Shown here: piece after piece, positions 1-17,549 of the stretch | How positions within the stretch are numbered: the stretch's first letter is position 1 | Layout: every line of letters starts with the position of its first letter | IMG/VR virus record: IMGVR_UViG_3300044606_000240 | Location: 1 to 51,301 of that record | Source: a virus | Taxonomy: Duplodnaviria; Caudoviricetes | Reading direction: 5' to 3' (one strand) | DNA length: 51,301 nucleotides | Position numbers and translations under genes: made by a program | Notes under the pieces: generated by a model | Database searches by the model: none | Seen by the model: the letters and a program-made list of their open reading frames with translations, nothing else | Told to the model about the DNA's origin: nothing

Positions 1-189
1 AAAATAGTAGTTTTAGAATTCTGCATAATTCCATTGTTCATAAGAAAAAGTAGTTCTAATCAACACAAGTCCTTAACCGCAGGTGTTTAGTGCTGGACAA
101 TCCACCACATAGAAGTCTTCATCCTTAAAGTAATAAATTTCAACTAACGAAAATCAATATAAAAAACCAAAGTGTAAATTTCGCCTCAA

Positions 190-217
190 TTGTCCGATAA
201 TGTATATTATCACTCAT
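190..217. other. dif-like (XerC/XerD) site, candidate attP
   Basis: TTGTCCGATAA-TGTATA-TTATCACTCAT fits the 11-6-11 layout and shares the 14-nt core ATAATGTATATTAT with E. coli dif; outer XerD arm degenerate; intergenic. Confidence 0.5.
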
Positions 218-252
218 TCTGGGGAAATATATCCCTATATCAATGGTCAAAG

Positions 253-290
253 AAAAAAAATAAGCAACTATAACTTAATATAGCTGCTTA
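253..290 (-). terminator. Rho-independent terminator closing the leftward operon
   Basis: 12-bp stem TAAGCAGCTATA/TATAGTTGCTTA followed by T8 on the minus strand, just after the stop at 310. Confidence 0.8.
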
Positions 291-309
291 TTAATATCAA
301 GACCAGTTG

Positions 310-537
310 TTAGTTACTTGCTTTGATATCTATTGTGAACGTATCATACTTTATATCCGGATGCGTTAGAGTATAGAGTTTCCAAAAGGGCATTACTATA
401 ATTGCACTACATCCTGTTTTCCAAAAGAGTTTTCTCATGTTAAATGATAAAGTTGTATTTCGATAGCCTAAAGATAATAATATTTTTATTACTTCTTCTA
501 AACGTGTGAATGATTCGCATTTTATTCTCAGATACAT
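310..537 (-). CDS. small paralogous-family protein (array 1)
   Basis: MYLRIKC...ILLSLGY...IIVMPFWK; GGAG SD before ATG 537. Confidence 0.75.
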   Translation of the reverse strand: MYLRIKCESFTRLEEVIKILLSLGYRNTTLSFNMRKLFWKTGCSAIIVMPFWKLYTLTHPDIKYDTFTIDIKASN

Positions 538-538
538 A

Positions 539-802
539 CTATCTCCATAACATTTGAGAGCAGATAAACAATAATCCATTTGTTTCTATTACTTTTAAAA
601 AGTCTCCCTCTTTATTATCAAAGTAAAAGATTTTATTTTCTGGAATAATAATAATAAAATTGAGACCCATTTCGTAAGATGTAATAATTGAATCATTATT
701 AGGTTTATAATATGCATCAGTCCATTTATAATTATTAGCAATAAGAGTATGCGTCATATTTTTTAATTCTTCTATTGTATTTGCTTCTATTCTTATAATC
801 AT
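539..802 (-). CDS. small paralogous-family protein (array 1)
   Basis: MIIRIEA...LIANNYKW...IIIIPENK; AGGAG SD before ATG 802. Confidence 0.75.
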   Translation of the reverse strand: MIIRIEANTIEELKNMTHTLIANNYKWTDAYYKPNNDSIITSYEMGLNFIIIIPENKIFYFDNKEGDFLKVIETNGLLFICSQMLWR

Positions 803-810
803 AATATCTC

Positions 811-1086
811 CTATATATTGCCTGTATATCTGCAAAGATTTATTTCTTTGGTTATTACTTTTATGGCATGTATCCAATGACTTTCATCAGAACATGAATC
901 AAAAAAGAAACATCGTTCTTTAAAACTGATAGTCAGAGAATCTAATGCTTGTGATTCCCAGTGTCTTAGAATATCACCAGGTAAAGCCCTGTATCTTTCC
1001 ACACACCAGCAATATCCGAGACCCTGAAGTATATCTACAGCCTGCTGCATGGCAGTTAATTCTTTGAATTGAATTTTTATTATCAT
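811..1086 (-). CDS. small paralogous-family protein (array 1)
   Basis: MIIKIQF...ILQGLGYCW; ATGA overlap with upstream gene. Confidence 0.8.
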   Translation of the reverse strand: MIIKIQFKELTAMQQAVDILQGLGYCWCVERYRALPGDILRHWESQALDSLTISFKERCFFFDSCSDESHWIHAIKVITKEINLCRYTGNI

Positions 1087-1310
1087 AATTTACCCTGAAA
1101 TTGTATGACATAAGCATTTTTGTTATATAAGTTCGGCTCACTATATCTGATTACTTTTTGGGCAGGATAAATATATAACGGATACATATTCCACCTCATT
1201 ATAAATTCACTGTTCAAATTAGTAGTCCATTTAAAACCTAAAGCTTTAAATACTTTTATAGCATCTGTCACTAAATAATCGGACGTTTTTATTTCGATAG
1301 CTATTGTCAT
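1083..1310 (-). CDS. small paralogous-family protein (array 1)
   Basis: MTIAIEI...FKALGFKW...LYIYPAQK...FQGKL; ATGA overlap. Confidence 0.8.
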   Translation of the reverse strand: MTIAIEIKTSDYLVTDAIKVFKALGFKWTTNLNSEFIMRWNMYPLYIYPAQKVIRYSEPNLYNKNAYVIQFQGKL

Positions 1311-1582
1311 ATAATTTGTCCCTTAAATAGTATTTCATTTGTTCCAGGTTTATTCAGATACCAGCGGCCATATAAAAAACATTGCTTTTGAAAAGGTTGT
1401 ATGATAAGTATATTTGTCCGGTATGACTGAGATCTGAATTCAGAAGAGAAATCCCGGATAGACAGACCCCACATACTCCATGTATATTTTGATTTTATAA
1501 GATATTCTATAATATTACTTCTTCTGCAATTTTTTAAATCGATAATTATACATATACGATTTAATATACTATTATTATTCAT
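1307..1582 (-). CDS. small paralogous-family protein (array 1)
   Basis: ICIII...LIKSKYTW...LIIQPFQK...FKGQI; ATGA overlap. Confidence 0.75.
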   Translation of the reverse strand: MNNNSILNRICIIIDLKNCRRSNIIEYLIKSKYTWSMWGLSIRDFSSEFRSQSYRTNILIIQPFQKQCFLYGRWYLNKPGTNEILFKGQII

Positions 1583-1827
1583 ATCTTTCCCTCGAATATC
1601 ATCTTGATATTACAATCAAATTTAGGGGCAAATCTGAATAATACCTCTTTATTAATTGGATATATATCAAGCCCGTTTCGAAACATAGAATTTATAAAAT
1701 TTTCTTTATTTGAAATTAAACTACTCCCACACCAGGTATAATTCAAAGAAGTTAAAATTTCATAAATTTTAAAAATTTCCTGTTCTGATAATGTATCAGA
1801 AAGTGAAAAATAAAATGGTTTTTTCAT
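1579..1827 (-). CDS. small paralogous-family protein (array 1)
   Basis: FYFSL...ILTSLNYTW...LDIYPINK...FEGKI. Confidence 0.75.
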   Translation of the reverse strand: MKKPFYFSLSDTLSEQEIFKIYEILTSLNYTWCGSSLISNKENFINSMFRNGLDIYPINKEVLFRFAPKFDCNIKMIFEGKI

Positions 1828-1879
1828 AATAATGTTATGAATAGTGTATAAAATTAATTTAGAAGTGGTTTAGAGAGCT

Positions 1880-1930
1880 TTTAAGACCAGGTTTCCAGAA
1901 AGGCTGCTTACTATACTCCCTGGTCTTAAA
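1880..1930. repeat. 12-bp perfect inverted repeat
   Basis: TTTAAGACCAGG (1880-1891) / CCTGGTCTTAAA (1919-1930), 27-nt spacer, intergenic. Confidence 0.8.
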
Positions 1931-2062
1931 GTCCTTTTAAATGCCTATTTCTGTGCGTTCTGAGCTTCTTTAATGGCATCATCCAGCACATCAATTATTT
2001 GTGTTTTAATAATTGGAAATTCTTTCATTATATTAATTAATAATAGTATTAAGCTATCTTTA

Positions 2063-2389
2063 TCAAACCGTTGCAGTATTTGTTTCATTGCATTTCGTTA
2101 GTAATTTTAATAATTCATTATACCTGATAACAGCAAATATATCGCCTCTGTCTTCTTTAATAATCTGGACATCTACATTTTCGTTAGGTTTTACAAGTTC
2201 TCCAATATGTTTTCTTCTTTTGGCTTGTATTTTATAATCTTCAAGTAATATATCTACTTCTTCATGCTGTCCCAGTGATAATCCATTGGAAGCGTATGCT
2301 CTTTTGGCATTTAGACCAGCAGCTTTAGCAATATTGACTATATCTCTTTCAAAGTTGCTGCCTTTTCGTTTACTTGCTCTTCCTGTCAT
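2063..2389 (-). CDS. Hjc-like PD-(D/E)xK Holliday junction resolvase
   Basis: SKRKGSNFERDIV...EVDILL...IQAKR pattern; start at 2389 overlaps upstream stop (ATGA). Confidence 0.75.
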   Translation of the reverse strand: MTGRASKRKGSNFERDIVNIAKAAGLNAKRAYASNGLSLGQHEEVDILLEDYKIQAKRRKHIGELVKPNENVDVQIIKEDRGDIFAVIRYNELLKLLTKCNETNTATV

Positions 2390-2568
2390 GGCATTAATTG
2401 TCTCCATTGGCTAATACCAAGAGTTATCTGCAGAGAAAGAAAACTAAATCCTATTTCAAAATGCAGTCCCTCATAAGTACTGCCGGTAAATGTTAATCCA
2501 AATATCCACAATATTGTCATGGATACTGTACTGGCGTCTTTAGTATCGTATCTTTTTATTTTAATCAT
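2386..2568 (-). CDS. small hydrophobic hypothetical protein
   Basis: 60-aa ORF with ATGA overlaps at both ends. Confidence 0.6.
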   Translation of the reverse strand: MIKIKRYDTKDASTVSMTILWIFGLTFTGSTYEGLHFEIGFSFLSLQITLGISQWRQLMP

Positions 2569-3119
2569 GTAATCCTTACCGTTGGTGTAATACGCTTGTT
2601 TAAAGCAGGATGATTCTCCGGTAAATCAGATATCTTGAACTTTCTTACAGATTTGGATAACTTCTTTTTTAGATTATCATCTTTAACAGCTTCAAGCAGC
2701 TGATTATATTCTATCCATGATAGTCCGGGCAGTATATAATTTCCATATTCTTCCTCTATCAATTCTTCATTGATAGATTCAGTAACCATTGAATTAAACG
2801 GATGAAAATTATATTCATGACCTCTTAAAGATTTTCCATCGCAGTGATAATTAAGTCTTGTTTTGATTTTTTCAATTTCTGTTTCTGTTCTTTTAATTGC
2901 TGCATCAACAGCAAGCCCTCTTTGCTTTTTAATCATTTTTAGCTTAACTATATCTGCATCTAATTGTTCAAGTACATGGCCATAGCCATCTATTTTACTT
3001 TTAAGCTCTATTTCATTATTGTTCCAGTATAGCTCAAGAGCTTCATCGAGTACACCTTCATTTTCAATAGTAGCAGCAGACAATTCCTGTCTTTCTGCTA
3101 TTAATTCAGTTAATGTCAT
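2565..3119 (-). CDS. Siphovirus Gp157-like protein
   Basis: helical pattern ELKSKIDGYGHVLEQLDADI..LK; lies in recombination module. Confidence 0.7.
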   Translation of the reverse strand: MTLTELIAERQELSAATIENEGVLDEALELYWNNNEIELKSKIDGYGHVLEQLDADIVKLKMIKKQRGLAVDAAIKRTETEIEKIKTRLNYHCDGKSLRGHEYNFHPFNSMVTESINEELIEEEYGNYILPGLSWIEYNQLLEAVKDDNLKKKLSKSVRKFKISDLPENHPALNKRITPTVRIT

Positions 3120-3310
3120 TTCACTCCTTCATGTGTATAAATTCCCACAATAGCTGGTTTATCATCAAAGTATTGTACTCCATCAGTAGCTTCATTTACA
3201 TAATAGGGAGCAGAATCAAAATCTCTGATTTCAACTTCTATACCGTCTGGTATGTCAGTTGCCTCTATTATGCCATTCTCTATCGTTATTATTACCTTTT
3301 TCATATTCAC
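3116..3310 (-). CDS. hypothetical protein
   Basis: acidic ORF KVIITIENG...IEVEIRDFD coupled to neighbours. Confidence 0.65.
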   Translation of the reverse strand: MNMKKVIITIENGIIEATDIPDGIEVEIRDFDSAPYYVNEATDGVQYFDDKPAIVGIYTHEGVK

Positions 3311-3464
3311 TTTCCTTCTTTAATGGCCAAAAAAACTCACATTCTCCACTCTTGTAAGGAGAATCAAGAAAATATGTCTGCCTGTATGATGGAGTTACCA
3401 TATACCTGTAGCAGGTATTTTTTAAATGGCATGTTTTTAATCTGCACATCGTTATATCCGGCAT
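3255..3464 (-). CDS. small Cys-rich phage protein
   Basis: MPDITMC-x4-C-x5-CYRY...CEFFW. Confidence 0.7.
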   Translation of the reverse strand: MPDITMCRLKTCHLKNTCYRYMVTPSYRQTYFLDSPYKSGECEFFWPLKKESEYEKGNNNDREWHNRGN

Positions 3465-3466
3465 AA

Positions 3467-5209
3467 TTATTCCTTTAACTTATAAAATCTGAATGTATCC
3501 ATATTTACTCTAAACATGGCTTTAAAAGGCATTTCATCTCTTGCTTTCAGAGAATTTATTTCTCTGTATAGAGCAGTCTGGCTTCCTTCTATAGAAATTA
3601 CTTTATCTGCCATTTGTTCCATATCAGAATCTCCTTTACCTGAATGAACTCCAAGCTTTTTGGGATTACCTCTGTAATCCATAAGAGCACCTTTGGATAC
3701 ATGATGTACACCCATTACTATTATATTTCTTTCCATAGCAATAGCTTTAATTGTTTCAGCTATTTCTACTAATGGTGACTTTACAGAACTGGTATTCAGT
3801 CTGCCAACTGTATCAAGTACCACTATCTGTGGGGACACTTCATTAATGATTTTCTTTAAATCATCGAGACTTAATCTTCTGGACACATAATTTATATAAT
3901 CAATGGTAGAAGAAAGAGAATTATGATTCTTTTGATAATAATCATCTACTTCTGCTTTATTCATATCATTTTGTATTTGTATAAATCTCCTGTACATTAA
4001 TCTTGATCCTACTTCATTATCTATATAAAGAGCAGGTAAATTAGCTTTAAGTACAAGATTCTGCATCCATGCAGATTTATTAATACCTGTATCTCCTATA
4101 AGTAATACAAATTCCTGCGGATAAATCCAGAAGTCATTCATTCCATGCCATATATTAGCTAAGTTAATAGCCTGGCTTTTTATATCTGAATGTATGAATT
4201 CATGGTATTGTTTTTCCATATCAGCAGCACTTAATATTTCTGGTGTATAATTTTTTGTTTTAAAGTATATACACCTGCTGTCACAATATTTTTGCATTAC
4301 TTCATCATGACAGCTAAACCTATAAGCTTTTTGATATATGTATTTTACTGTTTGTTCAATTTCTTTTTCTTCCATACCGGCAGCCCAGTTTTTTATCATA
4401 GCTGTTATACCATCTAAAGGTATACCTGCACGTCTGAAAGCTGATACCATCCTGATAATCTTTACATGACGTGAACCGGACAAAGCGGGTTCGGTATATA
4501 ACTTTTGCATGCAGGTAACAATAGGGGTGTATTCATCGGCTATTGCTGGCTGCGCAGCATGTGAAGGATAAATAATTTTTGATTTGTATATCGCTGTTTG
4601 ATCTTCTCCTGCTCCAAATTCTGTCTTACGTGGTGTTTTGGCTGCAAGAAGAATATCTTCAATTTTAGCCTGCCGAAATTCTTCATAAGTGAAGCCTGTT
4701 TTGTATAAGTTACTTTTTTGATTTATTGTATTACCGACTCTTATTAGTCTTGCTCCATCGTATATATCATCTGCTTCGGGAAAATATTCAGTCAATGTAG
4801 CTTTAACAATATTTGGCAAATTATCAGAAGGTTCAAATCCGAATATATCTGGTATGACTATATGATAGCCTGAACCGGAAAACCAGATCTTTAAATTATC
4901 TTCATCTGTTTTCCAGTCATCAAGTAATTTATCAATGAACGCTCTTGCTCTTTCCAGTGTAAATTCAGCAGTATTAGAACCTTTATCTATATCGAACAAT
5001 ATACGTTTCAGATAATATTTTCCTTTATATGATCTGATACTTTTATATTTTTGAAAGTGATATACTATATCTTCATCAAATTCATAATAACTGCAATATA
5101 ATACCTGGTTGGTTGATTGTGCCTGTTTTATTAAAGAAGGAAGAGCACTTGTATTAAATACTCTTCCTCTGAACCGAATATCTCCCATAGCTACTTCAAC
5201 ATAACCCAT
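3467..5209 (-). CDS. AEP primase(-polymerase) fused to SF4/RecA-type helicase
   Basis: AEP motifs LFDID and FSGSGYH; Cys-rich helical middle; Walker A-like GDTGINKS, Walker B VVLDT, EQMADKV and KAR motifs. Confidence 0.85.
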   Translation of the reverse strand: MGYVEVAMGDIRFRGRVFNTSALPSLIKQAQSTNQVLYCSYYEFDEDIVYHFQKYKSIRSYKGKYYLKRILFDIDKGSNTAEFTLERARAFIDKLLDDWKTDEDNLKIWFSGSGYHIVIPDIFGFEPSDNLPNIVKATLTEYFPEADDIYDGARLIRVGNTINQKSNLYKTGFTYEEFRQAKIEDILLAAKTPRKTEFGAGEDQTAIYKSKIIYPSHAAQPAIADEYTPIVTCMQKLYTEPALSGSRHVKIIRMVSAFRRAGIPLDGITAMIKNWAAGMEEKEIEQTVKYIYQKAYRFSCHDEVMQKYCDSRCIYFKTKNYTPEILSAADMEKQYHEFIHSDIKSQAINLANIWHGMNDFWIYPQEFVLLIGDTGINKSAWMQNLVLKANLPALYIDNEVGSRLMYRRFIQIQNDMNKAEVDDYYQKNHNSLSSTIDYINYVSRRLSLDDLKKIINEVSPQIVVLDTVGRLNTSSVKSPLVEIAETIKAIAMERNIIVMGVHHVSKGALMDYRGNPKKLGVHSGKGDSDMEQMADKVISIEGSQTALYREINSLKARDEMPFKAMFRVNMDTFRFYKLKE

Positions 5210-5220
5210 TCAAACTCCGT

Positions 5221-5499
5221 TTAAAATAAATTCAACTGTGCCGGGAGATATTTAATCTTCCAGGTAGTTTCTCTTCTGTCTGGATATTTATCAGAGATAT
5301 CTTTTAATTCCAATCCTTCATGTTGAAGGTCTTCATCTGTACGGATATATCGCCAGATACGTGCATACGTACCCGGCGAATGGAGTATACCATGTCTCTG
5401 TAAGGCATAGTTTGGAACTTGTGTTTCTATATCTGAATTACGAAATTCGCTCTGAGTGCGTATCCAGCTCAGCAAAAGCTGCTTCACTGTTTTCCGCAT
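5221..5499 (-). CDS. hypothetical, possibly winged-helix protein
   Basis: basic 92-aa ORF in replication operon. Confidence 0.6.
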   Translation of the reverse strand: MRKTVKQLLLSWIRTQSEFRNSDIETQVPNYALQRHGILHSPGTYARIWRYIRTDEDLQHEGLELKDISDKYPDRRETTWKIKYLPAQLNLF

Positions 5500-5740
5500 A
5501 AAATGTTTCTAATTTTTGTATATATAAATTGGTGAGTTTATGTGAATAGTCAATAATATCTTCTGGTGTCATGTGTGTAATATATTGCAGTAGTGCCTGA
5601 GAAAAATTCATAAAGGCATATTCTCTTAAATTCATACCTCTTTGAGGGCCAAAAAATTTATTTTTAATTGTTGTTGCTTCCCTTGCAAATACTGGTTTTT
5701 GATTCAAATCTTCTATTTTATCATTACTGTTTGTATACAT
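5438..5740 (-). CDS. conserved phage hypothetical protein
   Basis: GMNLREY...QALL pattern common in small phage proteins; GGAG SD. Confidence 0.65.
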   Translation of the reverse strand: MYTNSNDKIEDLNQKPVFAREATTIKNKFFGPQRGMNLREYAFMNFSQALLQYITHMTPEDIIDYSHKLTNLYIQKLETFYAENSEAAFAELDTHSERIS

Positions 5741-5764
5741 CGTATCTCCGTTAATGGATAAATA

Positions 5765-5781
5765 GGGGAGACAAGCTCCCC
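5765..5781 (-). terminator. GC-rich hairpin after SSB-like gene
   Basis: GGGGAG-N5-CTCCCC, weak T-rich tail. Confidence 0.55.
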
Positions 5782-5788
5782 CTGAAAT

Positions 5789-6364
5789 CTACCAAATCTC
5801 TTCTTCCTTTTTGTCAGCATTAGCTCCAAAGTTGAAGCTGCTTTCATTATTGGTTAAAGCATCCGGCGTATAATCTTTGGGATAACCTTTCTTTAAACTG
5901 TCAAGGAATTCATTCTTCATTGTTCCTGCATCTGTATCAGGAGCAAAGTATGTATTCCATGTTTTATACCTGGGTTTGCCATCCTCTTTTAAACCGGCTA
6001 TATAAGTAATTTTATATAGCTCCTGGTTTGTTATTGATTTTAAATCTTCCAGATTAAATCTGCCGTTATCATCTACTTCTGCAGATATACTGCAGGTATG
6101 TAATAATTTTGCAATAGGAAATGCAGTGCCCCAACCGGTTACAATTCCTTTTTCGTCACGCTTATAATTACCTGCAAGCTGGATAGTCCAGTTTTCTTCT
6201 TTACCTGCATTGATTGTCAGTTCAAGTAATATATCTCTTGTATCGTCAAAATATTGTGCATTGTATTTTATATTGGCATCCATTATAGTAAACTTCTGGG
6301 CGTATACCCCATCCATAAGTTTTAATCCATTGTTGCTGCCAATATTATCAGTTCTTAATCCCAT
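5789..6364 (-). CDS. putative single-stranded DNA-binding protein
   Basis: follows Sak4-like gene; acidic tail ending EEEIW; AAGGA SD. Confidence 0.55.
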   Translation of the reverse strand: MGLRTDNIGSNNGLKLMDGVYAQKFTIMDANIKYNAQYFDDTRDILLELTINAGKEENWTIQLAGNYKRDEKGIVTGWGTAFPIAKLLHTCSISAEVDDNGRFNLEDLKSITNQELYKITYIAGLKEDGKPRYKTWNTYFAPDTDAGTMKNEFLDSLKKGYPKDYTPDALTNNESSFNFGANADKKEEEIW

Positions 6365-6376
6365 ATCTTTTTCCTT

Positions 6377-7150
6377 TTAAGCTGCTTTAGTTATTGGAAT
6401 TTGAATTTTACTTAATGATTTAAGTGAATAAGTTTTCCCTGTACCAGAGTTTCCAAGAATAAGTATCTTCAATGCAGGATAGCCTTCTGCAAGATTAAAT
6501 AATAATTCAAAATCCTGTGGTATGCAGCCATTATTCTGTGCTGCATATTCAGAGATTTTGTCTATTCTGGATTTGGCATCTCTTCTTTCATCTGCCAGTA
6601 CCTGCCAGAGATATTCTTTTTTACCCGGATTTTTAGGATCACTTTTTACGTGCGTGTATGCTATTATATCAAAATATCTGCCTACCTGCTCTTTCATTTT
6701 ACCTGTTAAACCAGGTACATACCTGATTATACCCAGATCGTCATCTTTTTCAGGTGCTACATGACTGATAATAATAGCATGTTTATCAGTTCTGGTTAAT
6801 AGTAATACCAAATCCTCTACTGCTTCTCCAAGTTCTCCATACTGGGGCAATGTAACTTTGGAACTTGTACCTTTCAATTCTTTTTTCTTATTAGCACTGA
6901 AAGCAGTAATGGAATCAAGCACTTCTATATCAATACCCGGCTTTGTACGCCAGTATTCTTCTTCCACATCTCCAAGAGCATCAGTTGTTTTAATTACTCC
7001 CGGTTTGTGGATGGATGCAAAGAACTCAAAAGCACTTTTAGTCTTAATAAACCTTCTTGGTTTATAACCAAAGTGCTGTTCTATTTGTTCATCGGAACCT
7101 ATTGATTTCAAGCCTCTGTCAAAATCATATACAATTATCTTTGGATTCAT
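6377..7150 (-). CDS. Sak4/AAA_24-family ATPase, circularly permuted
   Basis: IIVYDFDRG, Walker B EVLDSIT, IIISH, YFDIIAY, AKSR; Walker A ILILGNSGTGKT lies at the C-terminus. Confidence 0.8.
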   Translation of the reverse strand: MNPKIIVYDFDRGLKSIGSDEQIEQHFGYKPRRFIKTKSAFEFFASIHKPGVIKTTDALGDVEEEYWRTKPGIDIEVLDSITAFSANKKKELKGTSSKVTLPQYGELGEAVEDLVLLLTRTDKHAIIISHVAPEKDDDLGIIRYVPGLTGKMKEQVGRYFDIIAYTHVKSDPKNPGKKEYLWQVLADERRDAKSRIDKISEYAAQNNGCIPQDFELLFNLAEGYPALKILILGNSGTGKTYSLKSLSKIQIPITKAA

Positions 7151-7159
7151 ATTTCCTTT

Positions 7160-7405
7160 CTATGATGCGAGTAATATTTTTGCTATTGCCCGTTCATGTA
7201 ATTCATTCACTACACTACAATGACGTTTTCGAATATATAGTCCCTGTTCATCACCAACATCAACGGTATAATAATCCACCGCCAGAGGTGGCGGTTCAAT
7301 TCTAAATTTACGCTCATACTGAATTGCTTCTATTACTGAAAACTGTTGATTATTCATGCCGTGATACCAGCATTCAGGTGCTGATCCTATTATTCTGATT
7401 TGCAT
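7160..7405 (-). CDS. hypothetical protein
   Basis: 81-aa ORF in operon orientation. Confidence 0.6.
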   Translation of the reverse strand: MQIRIIGSAPECWYHGMNNQQFSVIEAIQYERKFRIEPPPLAVDYYTVDVGDEQGLYIRKRHCSVVNELHERAIAKILLAS

Positions 7406-7560
7406 AAGTCACCCTTTGATAGAATTGTGAATGTTTTTTGTGTAGATAAAATTGCCCCATATTTGGAAACTAAATTATCTGTTTTAAAATAGCAATACCA
7501 TTTATGACATTTTTAGCAGATTAAATCACAGGTATATACTATTTATCAGACTGATCAAGA

Positions 7561-7806
7561 TTAGTTAATCAGCCTGATACTATTTTGGGCATACTCGTAT
7601 GCTTTGATGTTTACTCTGTCCTTCTCTGAAATTTTTTCTCCTGTTTTAAGTTTGTAAATAGAACTCCTTATATGTTTATCATGTATAATTCGGTTTAATT
7701 CTCTATAGTTAAATTTCTGACATCTAACCATAGTTACAGGATTGGTACATACTTTTTTATTATAAAAAATAGCATCAAACAATTGATTTACCAGGTATTC
7801 TGTCAT
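7561..7806 (-). CDS. hypothetical protein
   Basis: 81-aa basic ORF overlapping peptidase end. Confidence 0.6.
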   Translation of the reverse strand: MTEYLVNQLFDAIFYNKKVCTNPVTMVRCQKFNYRELNRIIHDKHIRSSIYKLKTGEKISEKDRVNIKAYEYAQNSIRLIN

Positions 7807-8698
7807 CTTGATTTTTCTCCTTGTTTATATCAGTTTCGTAAGAGTTATTCCAGCAATCAGGGCAAATACCGTTTTCAAATGCTTCATAATCTTCATCTGT
7901 AAACATTTCTGCTAAAGATATTCTCTTACTGCATACCATGCAGTCAATAAAATGTCTACCATATTTTGTAATTAGTTTAGTAGGTTGAAAATAATATTCA
8001 TCATTATAGTAATCAATACGACTGCTCCATCGCCCGCCGAAGGGCTTATAAGACGGATCATATTCAAATTTGATTTTATTGTATTTATCATAAAATCGTT
8101 TGAACTTTTGCATATTGGCATATATGGTATCTACATCTGCATGTGCATTTAGTGTATGATAATCTTCATATCCAACACCTACATTAACACCAGAACAGCC
8201 AAGATGGCTTAGGGCAGCTATATCTGAAAATGTACCAAATCCTACTTTAAATCCTACAGATTCAAGCTTGGCTTGAAATTCAGGATTTTTATATTGATAA
8301 GTAACTACATCAGAACCTGCTCTATCGAATTCTACCATCCAGTTATATTGCTTTCCGGTTTCAAAATATTCAGCAGTTGATTTACCTCTTTCTTCACCCT
8401 CTGTAAAGAGTATATCGACATTTATACCGAGTTGAGGTAATACATCAAGAATAAGATACACCCCTAATCTGTCGTCAAGAACAGGGGAGAATATCAATTC
8501 ACAATGAGATAACTGTAATATAGAAAAATGCTTTGGTTCACATACTGAATCAAGATGTGCAACTGCAAGTATGTCAGAACCATTATCTTTATGATAATAT
8601 ATGCCTGTCGCTGTTGAATATTTATTTAATCCATACTGACTAAAGTGGTCTGTAGGTGTCTTAAATATTTTCTTCATGATTTTATAGTTAAGTTGCAT
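7775..8698 (-). CDS. M28/M20-like zinc peptidase with C-terminal CxxC pair
   Basis: AHLDSV, LDDRLG, GEERG, EFDR, SDI, YHT metal-binding motifs; CMVC...CPDC. Confidence 0.8.
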   Translation of the reverse strand: MQLNYKIMKKIFKTPTDHFSQYGLNKYSTATGIYYHKDNGSDILAVAHLDSVCEPKHFSILQLSHCELIFSPVLDDRLGVYLILDVLPQLGINVDILFTEGEERGKSTAEYFETGKQYNWMVEFDRAGSDVVTYQYKNPEFQAKLESVGFKVGFGTFSDIAALSHLGCSGVNVGVGYEDYHTLNAHADVDTIYANMQKFKRFYDKYNKIKFEYDPSYKPFGGRWSSRIDYYNDEYYFQPTKLITKYGRHFIDCMVCSKRISLAEMFTDEDYEAFENGICPDCWNNSYETDINKEKNQDDRIPGKSIV

Positions 8699-9860
8699 GA
8701 GTTTCTTCCTTCAATTTAGTATAAAAGTTTACCATATCTTCATATTTATCTTTATGAAACCAGCTATGATATTGTTCACTATACTTACAGTCTTCTTTAT
8801 GATAAATATTATCATTCCAGAGAATTTCTATAGTATCTTCTTCGTATATATAAGCATTATAAAAATCACTCCAGACACAGAGATCATTATGCCATGTACC
8901 TTCTCTGCCAATACAGTAAGAATAATATTCATTCTCACAGTTTTCGCATGCCCATTGTCCATCCGTCATTTGTTCAGTGTCCCGGGTCTCGCCACAGAAC
9001 TGGCATATATGAGTTTGATATTCATCCTCTTTGAAATTAGCATCTACTTCATTTACACGATTAATAATAGATTGTTCACCAAGTATATAACCTTTTCCGC
9101 CATTATTTATATAAAGCAGACCATCTGCCTGGCCTTCATTAAGGAAAGCAATTTCTTTATATGAAGTACCTAAATAAAGAGAAGCTATTCTGGTTAACTG
9201 GAGAAGAGAATTATTCTGTAATGCAGAATTATTTCTTGCATAGCCATTAAACATAACAATATTATTTTTGTATGGAAATATCCATGCTCTTGCCATACCA
9301 TAGTCTTTATCTTCGGTGAGAATAAGATCAGTTGGTGTAAGTTTAGGATTATCATGCAATGCTTGCCTGGCTTTATCCGACCAGACTCTAAAGCACCAGA
9401 AACCATTATTAGCCATTAACATTCTTGCTCCGTTCCTTTCAGACCAAAAACAGCTGTTAGAATCTTCAAACATGCCTCTGTTCCACCATTCCATTTTTGG
9501 TTTTAGTGGCACAAAATCACATAGCAGGTTTTGTTTATCTATATGATAATTTTTCAACATAGTGCCTATTTCGCTTAGTATAGATGGTTCAAGTTTAATC
9601 TGATACTCTTTATAAAGAGCAGCAGCTATACGCTTGGTAAGAGTACCCCTTGTAGTTTTCCATACCCACTCTATATTTTTATCTAATGTTATAATGCTTG
9701 ACAAAAATGTAGTTAGAGTCATATCAGGTACCAGATTCAGATATTCAAGAATTTTAATAATTACTTTTTCTTTTCCTTCATCAACTACCATATCATCCGG
9801 TAATTGAATTTTAATAAATTTATTAATATGTTTGTTGAGAGTGTCAACAATAGAAGACAT
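8688..9860 (-). CDS. conserved phage protein with C-terminal Cys-rich repeats
   Basis: SCFW, ARAWI, LYIN motifs; CxxC pairs; overlaps peptidase gene. Confidence 0.7.
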   Translation of the reverse strand: MSSIVDTLNKHINKFIKIQLPDDMVVDEGKEKVIIKILEYLNLVPDMTLTTFLSSIITLDKNIEWVWKTTRGTLTKRIAAALYKEYQIKLEPSILSEIGTMLKNYHIDKQNLLCDFVPLKPKMEWWNRGMFEDSNSCFWSERNGARMLMANNGFWCFRVWSDKARQALHDNPKLTPTDLILTEDKDYGMARAWIFPYKNNIVMFNGYARNNSALQNNSLLQLTRIASLYLGTSYKEIAFLNEGQADGLLYINNGGKGYILGEQSIINRVNEVDANFKEDEYQTHICQFCGETRDTEQMTDGQWACENCENEYYSYCIGREGTWHNDLCVWSDFYNAYIYEEDTIEILWNDNIYHKEDCKYSEQYHSWFHKDKYEDMVNFYTKLKEETHAT

Positions 9861-9997
9861 AATCTTACTCCATTATTAGTAGAATTGAATGAATAATATA
9901 TATCTAACTCCTGTTGAGTTATTGTTTATTTACGATGAATGTATTGTTATAGATTTGTATAAAGTGCAGGTTATATCGAATCCAATGAGGGGATTAA

Positions 9998-10246
9998 TTA
10001 TCTTAAATTAAAGACTACAGGAATGTAGTCATCATTCCAGATTGTCCTATATTGATATAGTATTTCTTTTATATTTCCTTCTCTGATTACAACATCTTCC
10101 TGATTATATGCAATATCAATTGTAAATGGAGGATGCAAATAAATACTATACTCGTTTATTTTAAAATTATCAGGTAGTATGTCCAAAACATTTTTCATTG
10201 TATCCATATCTTTTGCTTCTATTAATATTATTATATCCTTATTCAT
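9998..10246 (-). CDS. small paralogous-family protein (array 2)
   Basis: MNKDIIILIE...VLDILP. Confidence 0.65.
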   Translation of the reverse strand: MNKDIIILIEAKDMDTMKNVLDILPDNFKINEYSIYLHPPFTIDIAYNQEDVVIREGNIKEILYQYRTIWNDDYIPVVFNLR

Positions 10247-10478
10247 ACGTACCTTTCCAGATAATATACGGACGGTTTATTGCTTTATAGTATTGAAGTA
10301 CTTTTTCTATGCCTTTTGAAGGATAACAATAAAATTCAATACATGGTATAAATGGCCTTAATGCAGCATAATCATATTTTTCTCCACAATAACTATCTGA
10401 ATAATAACTATTTGGCAACACTGTAATTAATTTTGTAACATCAGGATTCTTAATAATAATAGTAAAATCTTTTTTCAT
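10239..10478 (-). CDS. small paralogous-family protein (array 2)
   Basis: MKKDFTIIIK...ITVLP; resembles 9998 ORF (I.EILYQY vs IEKVLQYY). Confidence 0.65.
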   Translation of the reverse strand: MKKDFTIIIKNPDVTKLITVLPNSYYSDSYCGEKYDYAALRPFIPCIEFYCYPSKGIEKVLQYYKAINRPYIIWKGTYE

Positions 10479-10744
10479 TTTACCTCCAGATTACTTATAT
10501 TCCAACAATGTTGTTTTATCCATACTTCATTTAATGCATAATCTATATATATTTCTTCCATACGTTTCCCGTTGTCTATATATATTGGGATTATTAACCA
10601 GATAGCCATATAAAAACCGGAATCTAATATGTCCTTCATATAGCTTTGTAATTCATTCTCCCAAATTAGTCCCACATTTTTAATTACCTGTATTAAAATA
10701 TTCAGATGCTGCTTGCTTTTGATTTTTATAGCCAGATATTTCAT
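10475..10744 (-). CDS. small paralogous-family protein (array 2)
   Basis: MKYLAIKIKS...VIKNVGLIW...W.KQHCWNISNLE. Confidence 0.75.
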   Translation of the reverse strand: MKYLAIKIKSKQHLNILIQVIKNVGLIWENELQSYMKDILDSGFYMAIWLIIPIYIDNGKRMEEIYIDYALNEVWIKQHCWNISNLEVK

Positions 10745-11004
10745 GATAACTCCAAATGAGATAAATTAATACAATTATCTGCTTCCCATGCAGGCGTATT
10801 ACACCAGCACATTTCTTTTTCTGATAATGGAGTAAAAATAGAATTTAATATTGGCATACATAAATAAATTGTATTCCGGTAATCATGTTCTTCAAATTTA
10901 AGTGTGAGTCCCAAAGAAAATTTATATCCCAGAGAAGATAATATATGTTTAATAAGCATGTATTGTCTAAATGAATCAATAGTAAATGAAAAATATTTTT
11001 TCAT
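10741..11004 (-). CDS. small paralogous-family protein (array 2)
   Basis: MKKYFSFTIDS...ILSSLGYKF...W..DNCINLSHLE. Confidence 0.75.
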   Translation of the reverse strand: MKKYFSFTIDSFRQYMLIKHILSSLGYKFSLGLTLKFEEHDYRNTIYLCMPILNSIFTPLSEKEMCWCNTPAWEADNCINLSHLELS

Positions 11005-11255
11005 ATTCGCTCCAAATGAGTAACATCAATACAGTGTTTATTTTGCCATATAGCTGCACAAGCTGGCATAGAACTTACCATGAAATTAAGAAATTGAAGA
11101 TTTATAAAAATACTTTTACCTTTTTTAAGCATTCCCTGATAAAAGTATATTTGTGCTATAGAGAATATTTCTTGTTTTTTAACTTTATGACAAATTTCTA
11201 TTATTGTATTTAATTCTTCTATAGAATAAATTTTAATTGCTAAATATTGTTTCAT
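11001..11255 (-). CDS. small paralogous-family protein (array 2)
   Basis: MKQYLAIKIYS...W..KHCIDVTHLE. Confidence 0.75.
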   Translation of the reverse strand: MKQYLAIKIYSIEELNTIIEICHKVKKQEIFSIAQIYFYQGMLKKGKSIFINLQFLNFMVSSMPACAAIWQNKHCIDVTHLERI

Positions 11256-11270
11256 AAGAGTTATAATTAA

Positions 11271-11294
11271 GGGGCATATATTACTATATACCCC
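11271..11294 (-). terminator. hairpin with GTAA (GNRA) loop
   Basis: GGGGTATATA-GTAA-TATATGCCCC on minus strand downstream of the 11317 ORF. Confidence 0.55.
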
Positions 11295-11316
11295 AAATGA
11301 ATAAGGAGAAATTGAA

Positions 11317-12018
11317 TTATCTTAGATTCATTTTCTGCATTACGGTTATAAGAGAAGCGAAACTAACCATAACACATCCAGCCTCAATCTGGCTTTTATC
11401 ATTTACTGATACTGTAAAGCCAGCAACAACCGGAGCAATAATTTTGGGTTTACTTGCATATACAATAGCATCATCAAATGATTTCCTATTTTCAGTCTTC
11501 GGTGTATCAGTAGCAGCAATATATCCCTTGGCATTAAACCGAATATATTTTCTGTCAAGACTTTCAACTGTCTGTCCATGTGTTTTCCATGTCCAGCCGG
11601 ATGCAAATGCTATATTCTGCAGAATCCTGGATGTTGCAGGATTAACTTCAACATAGAAATCTTCGGGTATTGTACCCGCTTTTATAAAGTCATAAACAGC
11701 TCTAAGTTCACTGGCAGTAACATTATAACCCTGAATAACTATATGATCATTAAAGATATTAACCATATATCCATCAAGATCTGCAGTACCAAGTAATTCG
11801 GATACAGTAAATGGATCTATATTATTTGCTTCAAGAGCTTTTTTCAAACCAGAAGCATCAAACAAATTAGTTCCTATTTCTTTTGCCACAGCTTTTAAAG
11901 CATCTTTTGAGCTATTACCATTCTCAAGTATACTATCAATTGCTGCTTGTGGATTAAGGAAAAAATGTGCAAGTACTTTAGCTTCTGCTGATGTTAAAGT
12001 TAAATTAACATTTATCAT
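11317..12018 (-). CDS. hypothetical protein containing an array-family-like segment
   Basis: internal FYVEV...ILQNIAFASGWTW; AAGGA SD. Confidence 0.75.
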   Translation of the reverse strand: MINVNLTLTSAEAKVLAHFFLNPQAAIDSILENGNSSKDALKAVAKEIGTNLFDASGLKKALEANNIDPFTVSELLGTADLDGYMVNIFNDHIVIQGYNVTASELRAVYDFIKAGTIPEDFYVEVNPATSRILQNIAFASGWTWKTHGQTVESLDRKYIRFNAKGYIAATDTPKTENRKSFDDAIVYASKPKIIAPVVAGFTVSVNDKSQIEAGCVMVSFASLITVMQKMNLR

Positions 12019-12103
12019 ATTATTCCTTATAAAAATTATAATTTATAATTGTTTAATTATTATATATCTCAACAATAGTTGCTATATCTAATCTGCTAAA
12101 ATC

Positions 12104-12667
12104 TTATTCTGCTGTTAAGTAAGTATCTTTGAATTGTTCTCTTTCTGCTTCATGCTTAAACTTATTAATAAGTCCACGGTAGAAGCCTGTTTCTGCTATT
12201 GTAGCTTTTCTGTAATTCTTTAAATTATCAGAATAGGTTTCAGTATCATATCGTTTGTAAAATATAACTATTCCAACCTCATCGTCATTACCTCTTAGCT
12301 CAATATTGCATGCGCACAAAGAACTAACTTTTCCATCTTCACTTATTCCGTCAAACTGGAAAATACGAAAGCTATTTTTTTCTTCTATTACCAGCCAGTC
12401 TCCGGGTTTATAACTATCCAGATCAATTACTGATTGCAAGTATTGAATTGCTTTTTCAATAGAAAAGATTGGAAGATGCTGATGAAAACTATTTTCATTT
12501 TCTCTTAGTATTGAATTATCTGAAAATTCAAGATATGGAAGCAGGATTGTATTGGGCCATTCATTACATACTGCTTTATATCCTGCTTTTTCTCCCAGCT
12601 CTCTTAATTGCATCATGAGAGAGAAATTGTTAAATGTTGGTACTACAAAATTTTGAAGTATTTTCAT
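12104..12667 (-). CDS. hypothetical protein
   Basis: 187-aa ORF; N-terminal FVVP...LGEKAGYK, C-terminal YKPGDW...YRKAT. Confidence 0.7.
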   Translation of the reverse strand: MKILQNFVVPTFNNFSLMMQLRELGEKAGYKAVCNEWPNTILLPYLEFSDNSILRENENSFHQHLPIFSIEKAIQYLQSVIDLDSYKPGDWLVIEEKNSFRIFQFDGISEDGKVSSLCACNIELRGNDDEVGIVIFYKRYDTETYSDNLKNYRKATIAETGFYRGLINKFKHEAEREQFKDTYLTAE

Positions 12668-12684
12668 TTTTATTTCCTGTTAAA

Positions 12685-12954
12685 TTAGTTTATAAATTCA
12701 AGATCAGATATTGCCCAATACCAGGTACTGCTTTCAAGACGAACCAATATTGGAAAGGAATTATCCTGAACAACTTCTACTATTCTTCCAATAGAATAGT
12801 TTTTTGCTTTGATAGTATTCAAAGGTACATCTGCATTTGCAGAATCACAGTTTCGTATATTTTCTTTTATACATATTTTAACTTTTTTATCTATTAAAAC
12901 TTTTTTTAAAATATGTACATAAGGTTTCAGGTCTCTATAAAATTGTTGATTCAT
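12685..12954 (-). CDS. small protein, paralog of 12935-13264
   Basis: shared L..VL..K..K..I, VPL..I.A....IG.I, W...DL.FIN. Confidence 0.75.
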   Translation of the reverse strand: MNQQFYRDLKPYVHILKKVLIDKKVKICIKENIRNCDSANADVPLNTIKAKNYSIGRIVEVVQDNSFPILVRLESSTWYWAISDLEFIN

Positions 12955-13264
12955 TTTGCTCCTTATTAATAAATTTCAAGTCTTCCAGAGGCCACCACCA
13001 CGAATTGATATCACAATCACAAATTTCCCGGGAAATATCAAAGTAAAGCTGGACTGTAATTCCAAATTTAAGATATGAGCTGGATGGAGTATTTATGCTT
13101 TTTATAAATCCTATTTTATTATTGCAAGCTTCTATTACTTTAAGGGGAACAGAATGTTTAAAAGAAACAGACTGACATAAATCTCCCTGTATATTAACTT
13201 TAAGTGGTTTATTTAACAAAACTGACCGAAGTAATTCTGATTGTTGCTCTGTGAATTGTTGCAT
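12935..13264 (-). CDS. small protein, paralog of 12685-12954
   Basis: same motifs as neighbour; GAGG SD. Confidence 0.75.
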   Translation of the reverse strand: MQQFTEQQSELLRSVLLNKPLKVNIQGDLCQSVSFKHSVPLKVIEACNNKIGFIKSINTPSSSYLKFGITVQLYFDISREICDCDINSWWWPLEDLKFINKEQNESTIL

Positions 13265-13292
13265 GATTGCCTCTATTGATATTAAATAAAAG

Positions 13293-13365
13293 TAACTCCA
13301 ACAGGATTTGAACCTATATTATTACCCTGAGAAAGTGAAGTCCTATGCCATTAGACGATTGGTTT
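13293..13365 (-). pseudogene. degenerate tRNA-Glu(CTC)-like element
   Basis: D arm GTCT-AATGGCATA-GGAC, anticodon loop TT-CTC-AG, T arm ATAGG-TTCAAAT-CCTGT; acceptor stem poorly paired. Confidence 0.6.
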
Positions 13366-13629
13366 ATTTATTTGCCCAATAACATATTCAATAAATTGCC
13401 ATACTCTTTTTCTGCTTACATAAGTAAGGTCAATAGCATCAGCTTTCCAGTATTCACAATTTTCTTTTTTAATTCCTTTAGCGGCTAATTCACAGCTATA
13501 TGGAGTATTAAGATCCCATACACAACCTATTTTAAGGAATTGTCCATTATCTGTTGTGCAACCAGCAGTAAATTCAGGGAATACTTTATTGAATTCTTCT
13601 TTAATTTTCTGATAACTATCTTTATTCAT
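13351..13629 (-). CDS. hypothetical protein
   Basis: 92-aa ORF whose stop lies inside the D arm of the tRNA-like element. Confidence 0.65.
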   Translation of the reverse strand: MNKDSYQKIKEEFNKVFPEFTAGCTTDNGQFLKIGCVWDLNTPYSCELAAKGIKKENCEYWKADAIDLTYVSRKRVWQFIEYVIGQINKPIV

Positions 13630-13652
13630 TTTTGTTTGCCTTGTTTATAAAG

Positions 13653-13684
13653 TAACTGCCAGAATCTCCCAAGACTGGCAGTTA
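13653..13684. repeat. 10-bp inverted repeat (hairpin/terminator)
   Basis: TAACTGCCAG-N12-CTGGCAGTTA. Confidence 0.7.
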
Positions 13685-13873
13685 TCCCTAAATATTTTTA
13701 GTTATTTAATTGCAATACCTTCCATTAGTTTGTTATTGGATATTGATTTATTAAAAATAATATGATGGAGCCATGACTAAGTTTACTCGGAGATTTCACA
13801 TTGTTCTGCAATACTTGGTGCACCGTTCTTGCATCTTTTCCTTTCACTGTCTTGCGTCAGAGGACTCCGTCTG

Positions 13874-13946
13874 TAACCCCGAAAGGATTTAAACCTCTGT
13901 TTCCACATTGAGAGTGTGACGTTCTGGATCGCTAAACTACGGGGCT
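13874..13946 (-). tRNA. tRNA-Glu(CTC), non-canonical loops
   Basis: acceptor AGCCCCG/CGGGGTT, D GTTT/GAAC, anticodon TCACA-CTCTCAA-TGTGG, T AGAGG-TTTAAAT-CCTTT; lacks D-loop GG and T-loop TTC. Confidence 0.7.
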
Positions 13947-14042
13947 AAATGTTAAGATTGACTTCCTGGTATATATATAAAAGGAGTGATATTAAATAAT
14001 AAAACAGCTATAATGCTTATTAGCAATAGTATAATAGCAAGC

Positions 14043-14213
14043 TTATAAGTATCCACGGGATTCCATTTCTTTTGCTATATCTTCTGCAACAGCAATTAAT
14101 TCTTTTATAGAAGAATAACCCGGAATAAAATAAGTATTGTTGCTTAAAGCTATAATTAACTGTCTTATTATTTCTTTTTTAAGTTCTGCTTTTCTTTCTT
14201 CTTCGTATGGCAT
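14043..14213 (-). CDS. small hypothetical protein (56 aa, not in ORF track)
   Basis: MPYEEERKAELKKEIIRQL...; starts just after the upstream stop. Confidence 0.55.
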   Translation of the reverse strand: MPYEEERKAELKKEIIRQLIIALSNNTYFIPGYSSIKELIAVAEDIAKEMESRGYL

Positions 14214-14214
14214 A

Positions 14215-14604
14215 TTAAAGCCTGTCTTCTATATTAAGCTGTTCAGATCTTACAACCACAGTATGTCCATAATAACCATTATGAATATTATATACTGTAA
14301 ATTGTAATGTACCCTGAGAAGTTTCTAAATTGACAAATATAACTGCACATTCTTCTTCAGGAAGATCATAAGTCTTTAATTCTGTATCTGTTTTGGTTAT
14401 TCCGAATAATTCTGCTCCGATAAAAGAATTAAGATCATCCTCGGAGGTTAGATATCCCCATTGTTCACAACAGGACTGCTCATTATCAATAAGAATATGA
14501 ATTGTTTGTTTATCAGTAACAATTTCATATCCATCACCCGTACGATGAGTATTAAGATTGTAAGGATAATCAAATACTTCCCGTACTGATTTTATTATTT
14601 CCAT
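14215..14604 (-). CDS. conserved phage hypothetical protein
   Basis: QSCCE.W and YN.HNGYYG motifs; AAGGAG SD. Confidence 0.8.
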   Translation of the reverse strand: MEIIKSVREVFDYPYNLNTHRTGDGYEIVTDKQTIHILIDNEQSCCEQWGYLTSEDDLNSFIGAELFGITKTDTELKTYDLPEEECAVIFVNLETSQGTLQFTVYNIHNGYYGHTVVVRSEQLNIEDRL

Positions 14605-14632
14605 TTAGTTCTCCTTATTTTAAGTAAAAAGT

Positions 14633-14702
14633 AGCAAGTAAACGCAGTGTCTCTTCTGCCGTGCTCTTTAAAACACTCCATTTAATTTATAGTTTACTTG
14701 CT
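14633..14702. repeat. 11-bp inverted repeat with 48-nt loop
   Basis: AGCAAGTAAAC / GTTTACTTGCT; T-tract follows on minus strand. Confidence 0.65.
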
Positions 14703-15081
14703 GATAATAGCTAACAGAATAGTTAAAAGAAAAGAAAGGATAATAGCAAATATATCTTTCATCGGATTGATAGGAATCTACTCTTTTTTGTTTTTAATCC
14801 CCGGATATTAATTATTTAGATTGCTATTCTTTTGAAGAAATTATGAGATGCTGAACTATATACTAATTGATATATATGATTAGGACAGAGTTTAGATAAT
14901 TCAGTAATATTGTGCGGCATACATCTGTCATATTTCTTAGTATGACATTTAGGCTTACTATTGTGTCGGGTAATAAAGTTAACAATATTGTTCATATTGA
15001 TTATTCCTTATGAAAAGTTGTAGTTCCTGGGTGGTATGATTAAAAATAAAGGCAGTTTAACGAGATGCCCGGCTCGGATTG

Positions 15082-15435
15082 TTAATCACTTACCTCATCC
15101 CGCCTATTGAGATGAAAGTAAGGAATTAGAAATAAATTACCTGCCCGCACTTCACGGGCTATTATTTCTAAATTGAAATATGTAGTATTTGTACCTACTA
15201 CATATTTTAAAACGCTATTAGAATCGATGGCAAAAAAGATCACGTTTTCGCCATCGATTCTAATTTTTTGAAGCCAATCCCCTATACGATAGGCTTCAAA
15301 GTTTGAGTAATTGATAACATCACTTGCATATATATGTGGGCAAGTGAGTTTAACCCGCTCATTTTCTGTATGACCACAAGGAAAAGTGGTCATACGCTCT
15401 AAAAAAGCATCGACACTGTAAAGATGTTCACTCAT
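15082..15435 (-). CDS. hypothetical protein
   Basis: 117-aa ORF. Confidence 0.7.
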   Translation of the reverse strand: MSEHLYSVDAFLERMTTFPCGHTENERVKLTCPHIYASDVINYSNFEAYRIGDWLQKIRIDGENVIFFAIDSNSVLKYVVGTNTTYFNLEIIAREVRAGNLFLIPYFHLNRRDEVSD

Positions 15436-15445
15436 TTTATTTCCC

Positions 15446-15895
15446 TCATTGAATTAAATCTGTTGAGTCTATATAGCTAGAAGTTATTGCTTTTTGTAGA
15501 ACCGGGTTTGTCCAGGAAATGTCGATAAGTTCATCTCCCCTGATCTCAAGGACAATGTACTTATCTTTATAGAAGATTACTTTGACCGTAACTTCAGGCC
15601 AAATATATTGACTTATTCCCGTTTCCATACATCCGTTGCCGGATATATGAAACCTATTATCATAAATTTTATATTTTACCTCCAATGGTGTTACCCAGGT
15701 GTTTTGGCAGGTGATTACGTCGTCCTCATGTTTAATTTGTGTATGGACGAAAAAGTTTGGTCTATTAAATTCGTCATAACAAATTGGCTCTTGATATACG
15801 GTATTTAAGAGAGTCACCCCCAACGTTTTTTCGACATCTGCTCTGATGTCGAAACGAAATTTTTCATAACTGCTAATTACGTCTATTGCGTTCAT
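15446..15895 (-). CDS. hypothetical protein
   Basis: 149-aa ORF with AAGGA SD. Confidence 0.7.
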   Translation of the reverse strand: MNAIDVISSYEKFRFDIRADVEKTLGVTLLNTVYQEPICYDEFNRPNFFVHTQIKHEDDVITCQNTWVTPLEVKYKIYDNRFHISGNGCMETGISQYIWPEVTVKVIFYKDKYIVLEIRGDELIDISWTNPVLQKAITSSYIDSTDLIQ

Positions 15896-16025
15896 TTTAT
15901 TATTCCTTTTTGTTTTTTTTTATTTTATTATAGAATGGATTTAGTACAGGTATATTTATATTTAGATTTTAGTAGCATATTGATAATTATTAAGTAAAAA
16001 GACATTATTGATTAAGATGTAGGAA

Positions 16026-16046
16026 AAGAGGGAATAAATCCCTCTT
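16026..16046 (-). terminator. Rho-independent terminator
   Basis: AAGAGGGA-N5-TCCCTCTT plus T-run just after the stop at 16052. Confidence 0.65.
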
Positions 16047-16051
16047 AGAAG

Positions 16052-17482: not shown

Positions 17483-17511
17483 AATATAAGAAAAAATAAT
17501 CTATTTGTCAA
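17483..17511 (-). promoter_or_regulatory. sigma70-type leftward promoter
   Basis: TTGACA-N17-TATATT. Confidence 0.75.
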
Positions 17512-17549
17512 GTACCTCTTAACTTAGATATATTCATTTCAGAGACCAC

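Follow-up and report, generated by a model that had tools for sequence, protein, structure and literature searches.

Can a tailed phage with no recombinase gene in its record have entered the host chromosome through the host's own XerC and XerD, at dif? The question is raised by a 28-nt dif-like sequence near the left edge of a 51,301-bp viral record, which was analysed over its whole length and is called the window here. The site sits within the 309-base non-coding stretch that opens the window and forms the first intergenic stretch in the record; 42 bases separate it from the terminator behind the last phage gene. An earlier note, made from the letters of the sequence, had placed the site beyond this terminator, among the non-coding bases with which the window starts, and we find it there, past a minus-strand terminator and its ORF. 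If the genome were circular, the same note added, the site would lie about 190 bp upstream of a gene for an XRE-type helix-turn-helix (HTH) protein. It proposed that the phage may integrate at dif or resolve dimers through host Xer, and cited the XRE-HTH protein XafT of TLCphi as a parallel.

The letters at 190-217 are TTGTCCGATAA TGTATA TTATCACTCAT. Against the 28-nt E. coli dif string used as reference (PMC3025954, PMC3325230), 17 of the 28 positions are identical, with a single exact run of 14 nt at 197-210, so that the likeness to E. coli dif given in the earlier note was reproduced on recounting. By itself, this comparison yields a match barely above chance. The window holds 22 places that reach at least 17/28 and three that reach at least 18/28, against a mean of 27.7 places at or above 17/28 in first-order Markov simulations of the window (n = 300). 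An exact word of at least 14 nt in common with E. coli dif turned up in 12 of the 300 simulations.

Because the nearest genome matches were Bacteroidota, genomes of this phylum were chosen for a dif search. The sample consisted of 401 Bacteroidota genomes, a phylum that may not be that of the host, and dif sites were derived from the genomes themselves with a 16-nt search word comprising the dif core and the start of the XerD arm. This word had 28 matches in 27 of the 401 genomes, compared with four matches for a backwards-word control. All but one of the 28 extend as a conserved XerD-type arm, TTATGT[A/C/T]AA[C/A]T; the XerC-type arms differ among the sites. GC skew, calculated over 20 kb on each side, changes sign at the site, from plus to minus, in all seven genomes tested. 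Given the conserved XerD arm, the skew flip and the excess over the control, we regard the Bacteroidota matches as genuine dif sites.

The window site agrees with one of these sites, the dif of G420, at 22 of 28 positions, including an exact run of 21 nt. Bases 190-210 are, letter for letter, the dif of three genomes (G420, L121; G192, L127; G453, L153), and in six further genomes the dif is one base off the same stretch (L124, L125, L154 and L156 are among such loci). Each of the three genomes with the identical dif encodes a XerD orthologue, which exceeds the curated cut-off of TIGR02225, as well as a second Xer-like gene. The second-best match to Bacteroidota dif in the window reaches 19/28, and there is one such dif-like site in the whole window. 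Calculated analytically, 2.4e-7 such 21-mers are expected in the window, and the longest word in common with Bacteroidota dif in 300 simulations was 15 nt; a chance match is therefore excluded, and by its sequence the stretch at 190-217 is truly dif-derived. The earlier warning that the match might be fortuitous thus applies to the E. coli reference, where the likeness is close to chance, but not to the Bacteroidota one.

What the window carries is, however, half of a dif. Its XerD-type arm, TTATCACTCAT, shares 5 of 11 positions with TTATGTAAACT. After TTAT the window continues with CACTCAT, where every genomic dif has GT.AA.., and the arm deviates at G22 and T23, both of which are invariant in 28 of 28 genomic dif sites; the description of this arm as degenerate is therefore borne out. 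Bases 190-210 mimic a host dif in the XerC arm and the centre, as is expected of an IMEX attachment site, and the window site lacks the canonical XerD arm that marks a functional chromosomal dif. A 22-mer of the site that includes the diverged arm had no match in viral contigs.

The remainder of the window is phage DNA, and the phage is tailed and podovirus-like (Table 1). Its products include a P22-like portal, a SU10-type major capsid protein and adaptor, a lysozyme, a terminase, a primase-helicase, RusA-like and Gam-like proteins and a protein of 2962 aa. The terminator closing the early operon is the one found of its kind, against 0.2 expected. A search of the six frames of the 51.3-kb record for tyrosine (PF00589) and serine (PF00239) recombinases gave none, and Pfam analysis of 64 ORFs returned 13 families with no recombinase or transposase among them. 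No recombinase is encoded inside the record, which is itself trimmed at gene borders, and the lack of an integrase pointed out in the earlier note holds for this trimmed record. Mu-like transposition, brought to mind by the Gam-like protein, was rejected for want of any transposase family in the 64 ORFs. The only tRNA of the window is a tRNA-Glu(CTC) on the minus strand of the early region (13873-13946). The ORF for the 2962-aa protein (41972-50860), which had no PHROG match in one scan, overlaps the convergent HTH gene by 30 bases.

Table 1. Features of the window, with positions counted from its first base.
Feature	Position	Strand	Basis or remark
Presumed host DNA, XerC-arm side of dif	1..189	.	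Presumed from its being non-coding and lying between the software-set border and the site
Half-dif site, read as hybrid attL	190..217	+	21-nt identity to genomic Bacteroidota dif
XerC-type arm	190-200		Part of half-dif site
Central region TGTATA	201-206		Part of half-dif site
Diverged XerD-type arm	207-217		Retains TTAT and the final T only
Tailed prophage body	218..51301	.	Gene families; CheckV completeness 100
Intrinsic terminator closing the early operon; first certain phage DNA	259..292	-	14-pair stem, T-run
Final early-operon ORF, 89 aa, no family; left terminal gene of the provirus	310..579	-	
Early and replication genes	310-17511	-	
Structural genes	18205-50860	+	
XRE-type HTH gene, 156 aa; right terminal gene	50831..51301	-	Record ends at its ATG

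The premise of a circular genome had to be abandoned. The record is classed as a provirus (51,301 bp, CheckV completeness 100). Its right end coincides with the start codon (ATG) of the HTH gene, as is characteristic of trimming by software at gene boundaries. In the protein collection, the entry of the HTH protein comes from a single 172,287-bp contig; the DNA around the phage thus extends far beyond the record, and the arrangement in which the site precedes the HTH gene across a closed circle fails. The phage is integrated in larger DNA. With circularity discounted, the site is better understood as attL, a junction produced by recombination, than as an attP still intact.

If the site is a left junction, then bases 1-189 should be host DNA, and we infer that they are. 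They contain no Rfam family and no tRNA. When bases 1-309 were compared with the 28 dif loci and with 121 genomes of the family of G192, a search for the empty site, the matches were to the site only, and the longest flank extension beyond it was 14 nt (G432). An exact 41-mer of the left flank was not found in metagenome contigs. The host is a low-GC organism and most likely a member of the Bacteroidota; window GC ranges from 29 to 40%, and the local GC of G453 is 36%. Shine-Dalgarno motifs are present in 38 of 66 window ORFs, but their use as a clue to the host was dropped, as all relatives have them too, including a prophage in a Bacteroidetes metagenome-assembled genome (MAG).

A half-dif followed by foreign DNA, its distance of 42 bases from the phage terminator, its place in the first intergenic stretch and the lack of a recombinase in the record together lead to the attL reading. 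We consider it probable that the window is a complete tailed, podovirus-like prophage and that 190-217 is a hybrid attL left by Xer-mediated integration at the host dif. At this left junction, the host dif would have contributed the XerC-type arm and the centre, and phage DNA would begin with the XerD-type arm and extend to the right. The attP of the free phage would accordingly combine a dif-like XerC arm and centre with a degenerate XerD arm, and host XerC and XerD would recombine it with dif. A second junction, just past the HTH gene and outside the record, would regenerate a working canonical dif. The degenerate arm of attL could then prevent excision by FtsK-driven Xer recombination at each division, the effect that such an arm is thought to have in TLCphi and in the gonococcal island, where it blocks FtsK-dependent excision (PMC6744903). 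The second junction, the Xer proteins as the recombinases and the order of strand exchange are parts of this scheme that we infer from the arrangement of the left end.

The HTH protein gives this scheme a probable repressor, and it does not resemble XafT. XafT activates XerD through its DUF3653 domain and not through its HTH domain (PMC6744903). DUF3653 (PF12375) was absent from the six frames of the record at E<=10 and from the Pfam scan. The HTH protein matches HTH_3 below the cut-off (E 9e-4), HTH_31 and a GA-like family similarly weakly, and the PHROG family phrog_8, 'transcriptional regulator', at E 9.5e-5. Its AlphaFold model, built from two sequences (pLDDT 83), predicts a five-helix HTH domain at residues 1-61 followed by a single helix of 84 residues at 72-155. 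A fold search with this model gave nothing at E<=0.001, the weak matches being HTH domains of the Cro/CI/HigA type, and a PDB sequence search gave nothing significant. Homologues were found in none of 166 and none of 264 host genomes of two families, and a search of viral contigs with the protein and its 66% homologue P0002, whose gene lies on a 52.5-kb contig, recovered no relative. It is probably a prophage repressor located at the end of the element. The protein, an HTH domain plus a coiled coil, might conceivably double as a new Xer control factor of a kind without DUF3653. What stands of the proposed hijacking of Xer at dif is thus a dif-derived site, an integrated phage and a record that encodes no recombinase; the circular genome and the XafT analogy, which the model and the missing DUF3653 contradict, do not.

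What do relatives of the phage carry at the corresponding place? A megablast of bases 1-6000 against phages gave no match. Distant relatives were recovered through the portal protein (50-54% identity): in viral contigs, 428 of the 437 candidates, and in addition three genome contigs. The relatives and the window have in common the order portal, capsid, giant protein, with RusA and primase on the opposite strand. C-terminal homologues of the 2962-aa protein terminate the structural module in all relatives; the C-terminus of the giant protein itself was not found in metagenome contigs. A tyrosine recombinase of about 300 aa occurs in 11 of 20 related records; among the 12 whose completeness is 90% or more, eight have it. 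In G005 and G012, a tRNA-Gly(GCC) followed by a tyrosine integrase is found in precisely the interval that separates the giant gene from the end of the early operon. These tRNA-Gly(GCC)-integrase loci were recorded in L096 (7761-8826) and L097 (11639-11712). With a full tRNA-Gly gene next to the integrase, the attP of these phages probably lies inside the tRNA copy. The window, at the same junction, has the HTH gene and the half-dif, with no integrase (PF00589) and no tRNA copy. The presence of an integrase module at this junction in relatives indicates that the lysogeny module sits here and has been swapped.

Two further relatives were of use. One is a prophage in G021, occupying about 91.8-137.8 kb of a 142.6-kb contig of a Bacteroidetes MAG (C3; L118, L115, L004, L119), where it adjoins a tRNA-Ser(GCT). 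The ends of this prophage are permuted in the same way as those of the window. No PF00589 match was obtained in the contig, and comparison of the tRNA-Ser side with the giant-gene side disclosed no att repeats. Shine-Dalgarno-like motifs precede 22 of 39 genes of the prophage and 1 of 11 genes of its host flank, and the contig could be chimeric. The other is G011 (L105, L101), a relative of 50.8 kb recorded as 'linear' whose ends overlap within the portal gene (residues 24-696 and 647-729); it probably represents a complete genome assembled as a circle, with no integrase. Neither the G021 prophage nor any of five full, distant relatives has the dif-like site; elsewhere in their genomes, the five reach 18-20/28 against E. 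coli dif by chance. The earlier note had looked to the integration sites of related prophages for evidence against its proposal, and distant relatives do, formally, point elsewhere, either to a tRNA-Gly attP with its own integrase or to a place beside tRNA-Ser.

The integrases of the relatives bear most directly on another explanation, in which the phage was integrated at dif by a tyrosine recombinase that it encodes itself or that belongs to a neighbouring element, the recombinase gene lying just outside the trimmed record. The software cut the record at gene borders, CheckV trimming may have taken off such a gene, and the recombinase of the relatives is encoded at exactly this junction. Recombinase genes near dif are common, and G192 and G453 each have a Xer-like paralogue about 9 kb from dif (G192:C122 50186-51040; G453:C26 197536-198387). 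These two genes score about 255-260 bits, under the XerD cut-off. The integrases of the relatives, however, pair with a tRNA-Gly attP and not with dif, and the record without a recombinase is still rated 100% complete. The precision with which the left cut brackets the junction suggests that the cuts are accurate, and if bases 1-189 are host DNA there can be no phage gene on the left. We therefore judge a missing recombinase gene to be unlikely as the explanation.

Could the site instead be a dif mimic that belongs to the phage throughout? Unrelated phages show that such mimics may exist. Viral contigs contain a 20-mer of the half-site in 61 stretches (L181-L241), 54 of which share one complete 28-nt dif-like site whose flanks are conserved among these contigs. 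The carriers include complete genomes of 37.5 kb, two of them with terminal repeats, and have a SU10-type portal; by portal they are unrelated to the window phage. PF00589 is absent from 12 of 14 records. In one of the carriers, G823 (L242 and L243), the whole dif-like site lies near 16,263-16,290. Another viral record, G828 (61,867 bp; L181, L197), has two slightly different full copies with their flanks, which may reflect either an array of tandem copies or an assembly that is chimeric. On the strength of the shared site, these 37.5-kb podoviruses look like tailed phages that carry a whole dif mimic. Their nearest cultured relative is a phage of an alphaproteobacterium, and this dif type may reach beyond the Bacteroidota.

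By analogy with these podoviruses, bases 1-189 would be phage DNA, the site would be an intact mimic serving multimer resolution or an attP not in use, and its position at the edge would be an artefact of the cut. Besides the conserved phage flanks of the 54 contigs and the complete genomes without PF00589, this account has in its favour that bases 1-189 matched nothing in the host genomes searched. Against it, dimer resolution requires both arms and the window site has lost G22 and T23; the provirus record lies inside a contig of 172 kb; and an accidental site no more than 190 bases from a cut is improbable in 51.3 kb. An intact mimic of this kind seems to us a doubtful interpretation of the window.

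Less likely still is that an older Xer-dependent element left the half-dif behind as a scar at the host dif, and that the phage inserted alongside by another route. Remnants and tandem arrays of such elements are described as common at dif (PMC12715192), but the phage terminator is just 42 bases from the site, and an alternative route, by integrase or transposase, is not encoded in the record. Finally, the idea of an AT-rich chance palindrome, or of a promoter or operator unrelated to Xer, draws on the near-chance match to E. coli dif as sole reference and on the -10-like core GATAAT-N4-ATTATC, and can be set aside in view of the 21-nt identity to real dif sites. As an operator, this palindrome was rejected: it has one exact copy, and its 14 matches with at most two mismatches, against 9.1 expected, are not above chance. 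A sigma-70-like promoter pair lies at 243-216 on the minus strand, and an extended -10 can be read inside the site; a promoter cannot account for the dif identity, and may be a side property of the sequence.

We thus return to Xer-mediated integration at dif as the preferred reading. The wider proposal that may be built on it is more tentative, and we would put it forward as a serious possibility somewhat short of a probable one: that a tailed dsDNA phage lysogenises through host XerC/D, that an integrase-plus-tRNA module has been exchanged for a half-dif attP and a repressor, and that dif mimicry is widespread in marine tailed podoviruses. The comparison nearest at hand is with G005 and G012, which have portal, capsid, giant protein and lysogeny junction in the same order, followed by RusA and primase on the other strand, and which differ at the junction as described above.

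Parts of the arrangement are familiar from other Xer users. The window site resembles the attP of TLCphi and the gonococcal genetic island in having a good XerC arm and centre, a degenerate XerD arm and no recombinase in the element (PMC6744903). Unlike TLCphi, the window phage has no DUF3653 or XafT, and unlike both elements it is a tailed phage of 51 kb, neither a satellite nor an island, in a host that we do not take for a proteobacterium. VGJphi and CTXphi are likewise described as integrating at dif through host XerC/D without a phage recombinase, but they are filamentous ssDNA phages, and there is no indication in the window phage of the folded single strand of CTXphi. Strand exchange is XerC-first in VGJphi and activated XerD-first in TLCphi, and either order may apply to the window phage.

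The closest precedent for an exchange of lysogeny modules comes from tailless double jelly-roll (DJR) prophages of Vibrio, in which an int-type or a dif-type module is found on one core genome, and some dif-type phages of this group have a 'left-armed (17-bp)' attP (PMC12715192). As in these phages, related genomes differ in the lysogeny module, and the repressor, a probable one in the window, is a terminal gene. The Vibrio phages are, however, tailless and smaller than 16 kb, with a XafT/P15 homologue as the other terminal gene (PMC12715192), whereas the window phage is tailed, has 51 kb and lacks XafT. Unlike the Vibrio DJR pairs, the window phage and its integrase-bearing relatives share merely about 50% portal identity. 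Among Bacteroidetes, BMV/Alpavirinae proviruses without an integrase are flanked by dif-like sequences and have been proposed to use host XerC/D (PMC3091885). These are 6-kb ssDNA microviruses of gut Bacteroidales, and the claim made for them is likewise computational (PMC3091885).

The Xer users documented in these sources are filamentous phages, tailless DJR phages, microviruses (predicted) and some genomic islands, and the exploitation of Xer has been presented as a genome-saving strategy of small elements (PMC12715192). In the literature searched, which comprised titles, abstracts and passages of PMC12715192, no tailed phage using Xer/dif integration was found. The class of mechanism is known, then, and what has not been reported there is a tailed phage as its user, with this type of dif.

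If the proposed reading is correct, the exploitation of Xer would extend to Caudoviricetes and to a Bacteroidota-type dif, and would not be confined to tiny genomes. A natural swap between an integrase module and a dif module would be available for study. Programs that find prophages by integrases and att repeats will set the borders of such prophages wrongly. Insertions at dif affect chromosome segregation as well as the stability of lysogeny.
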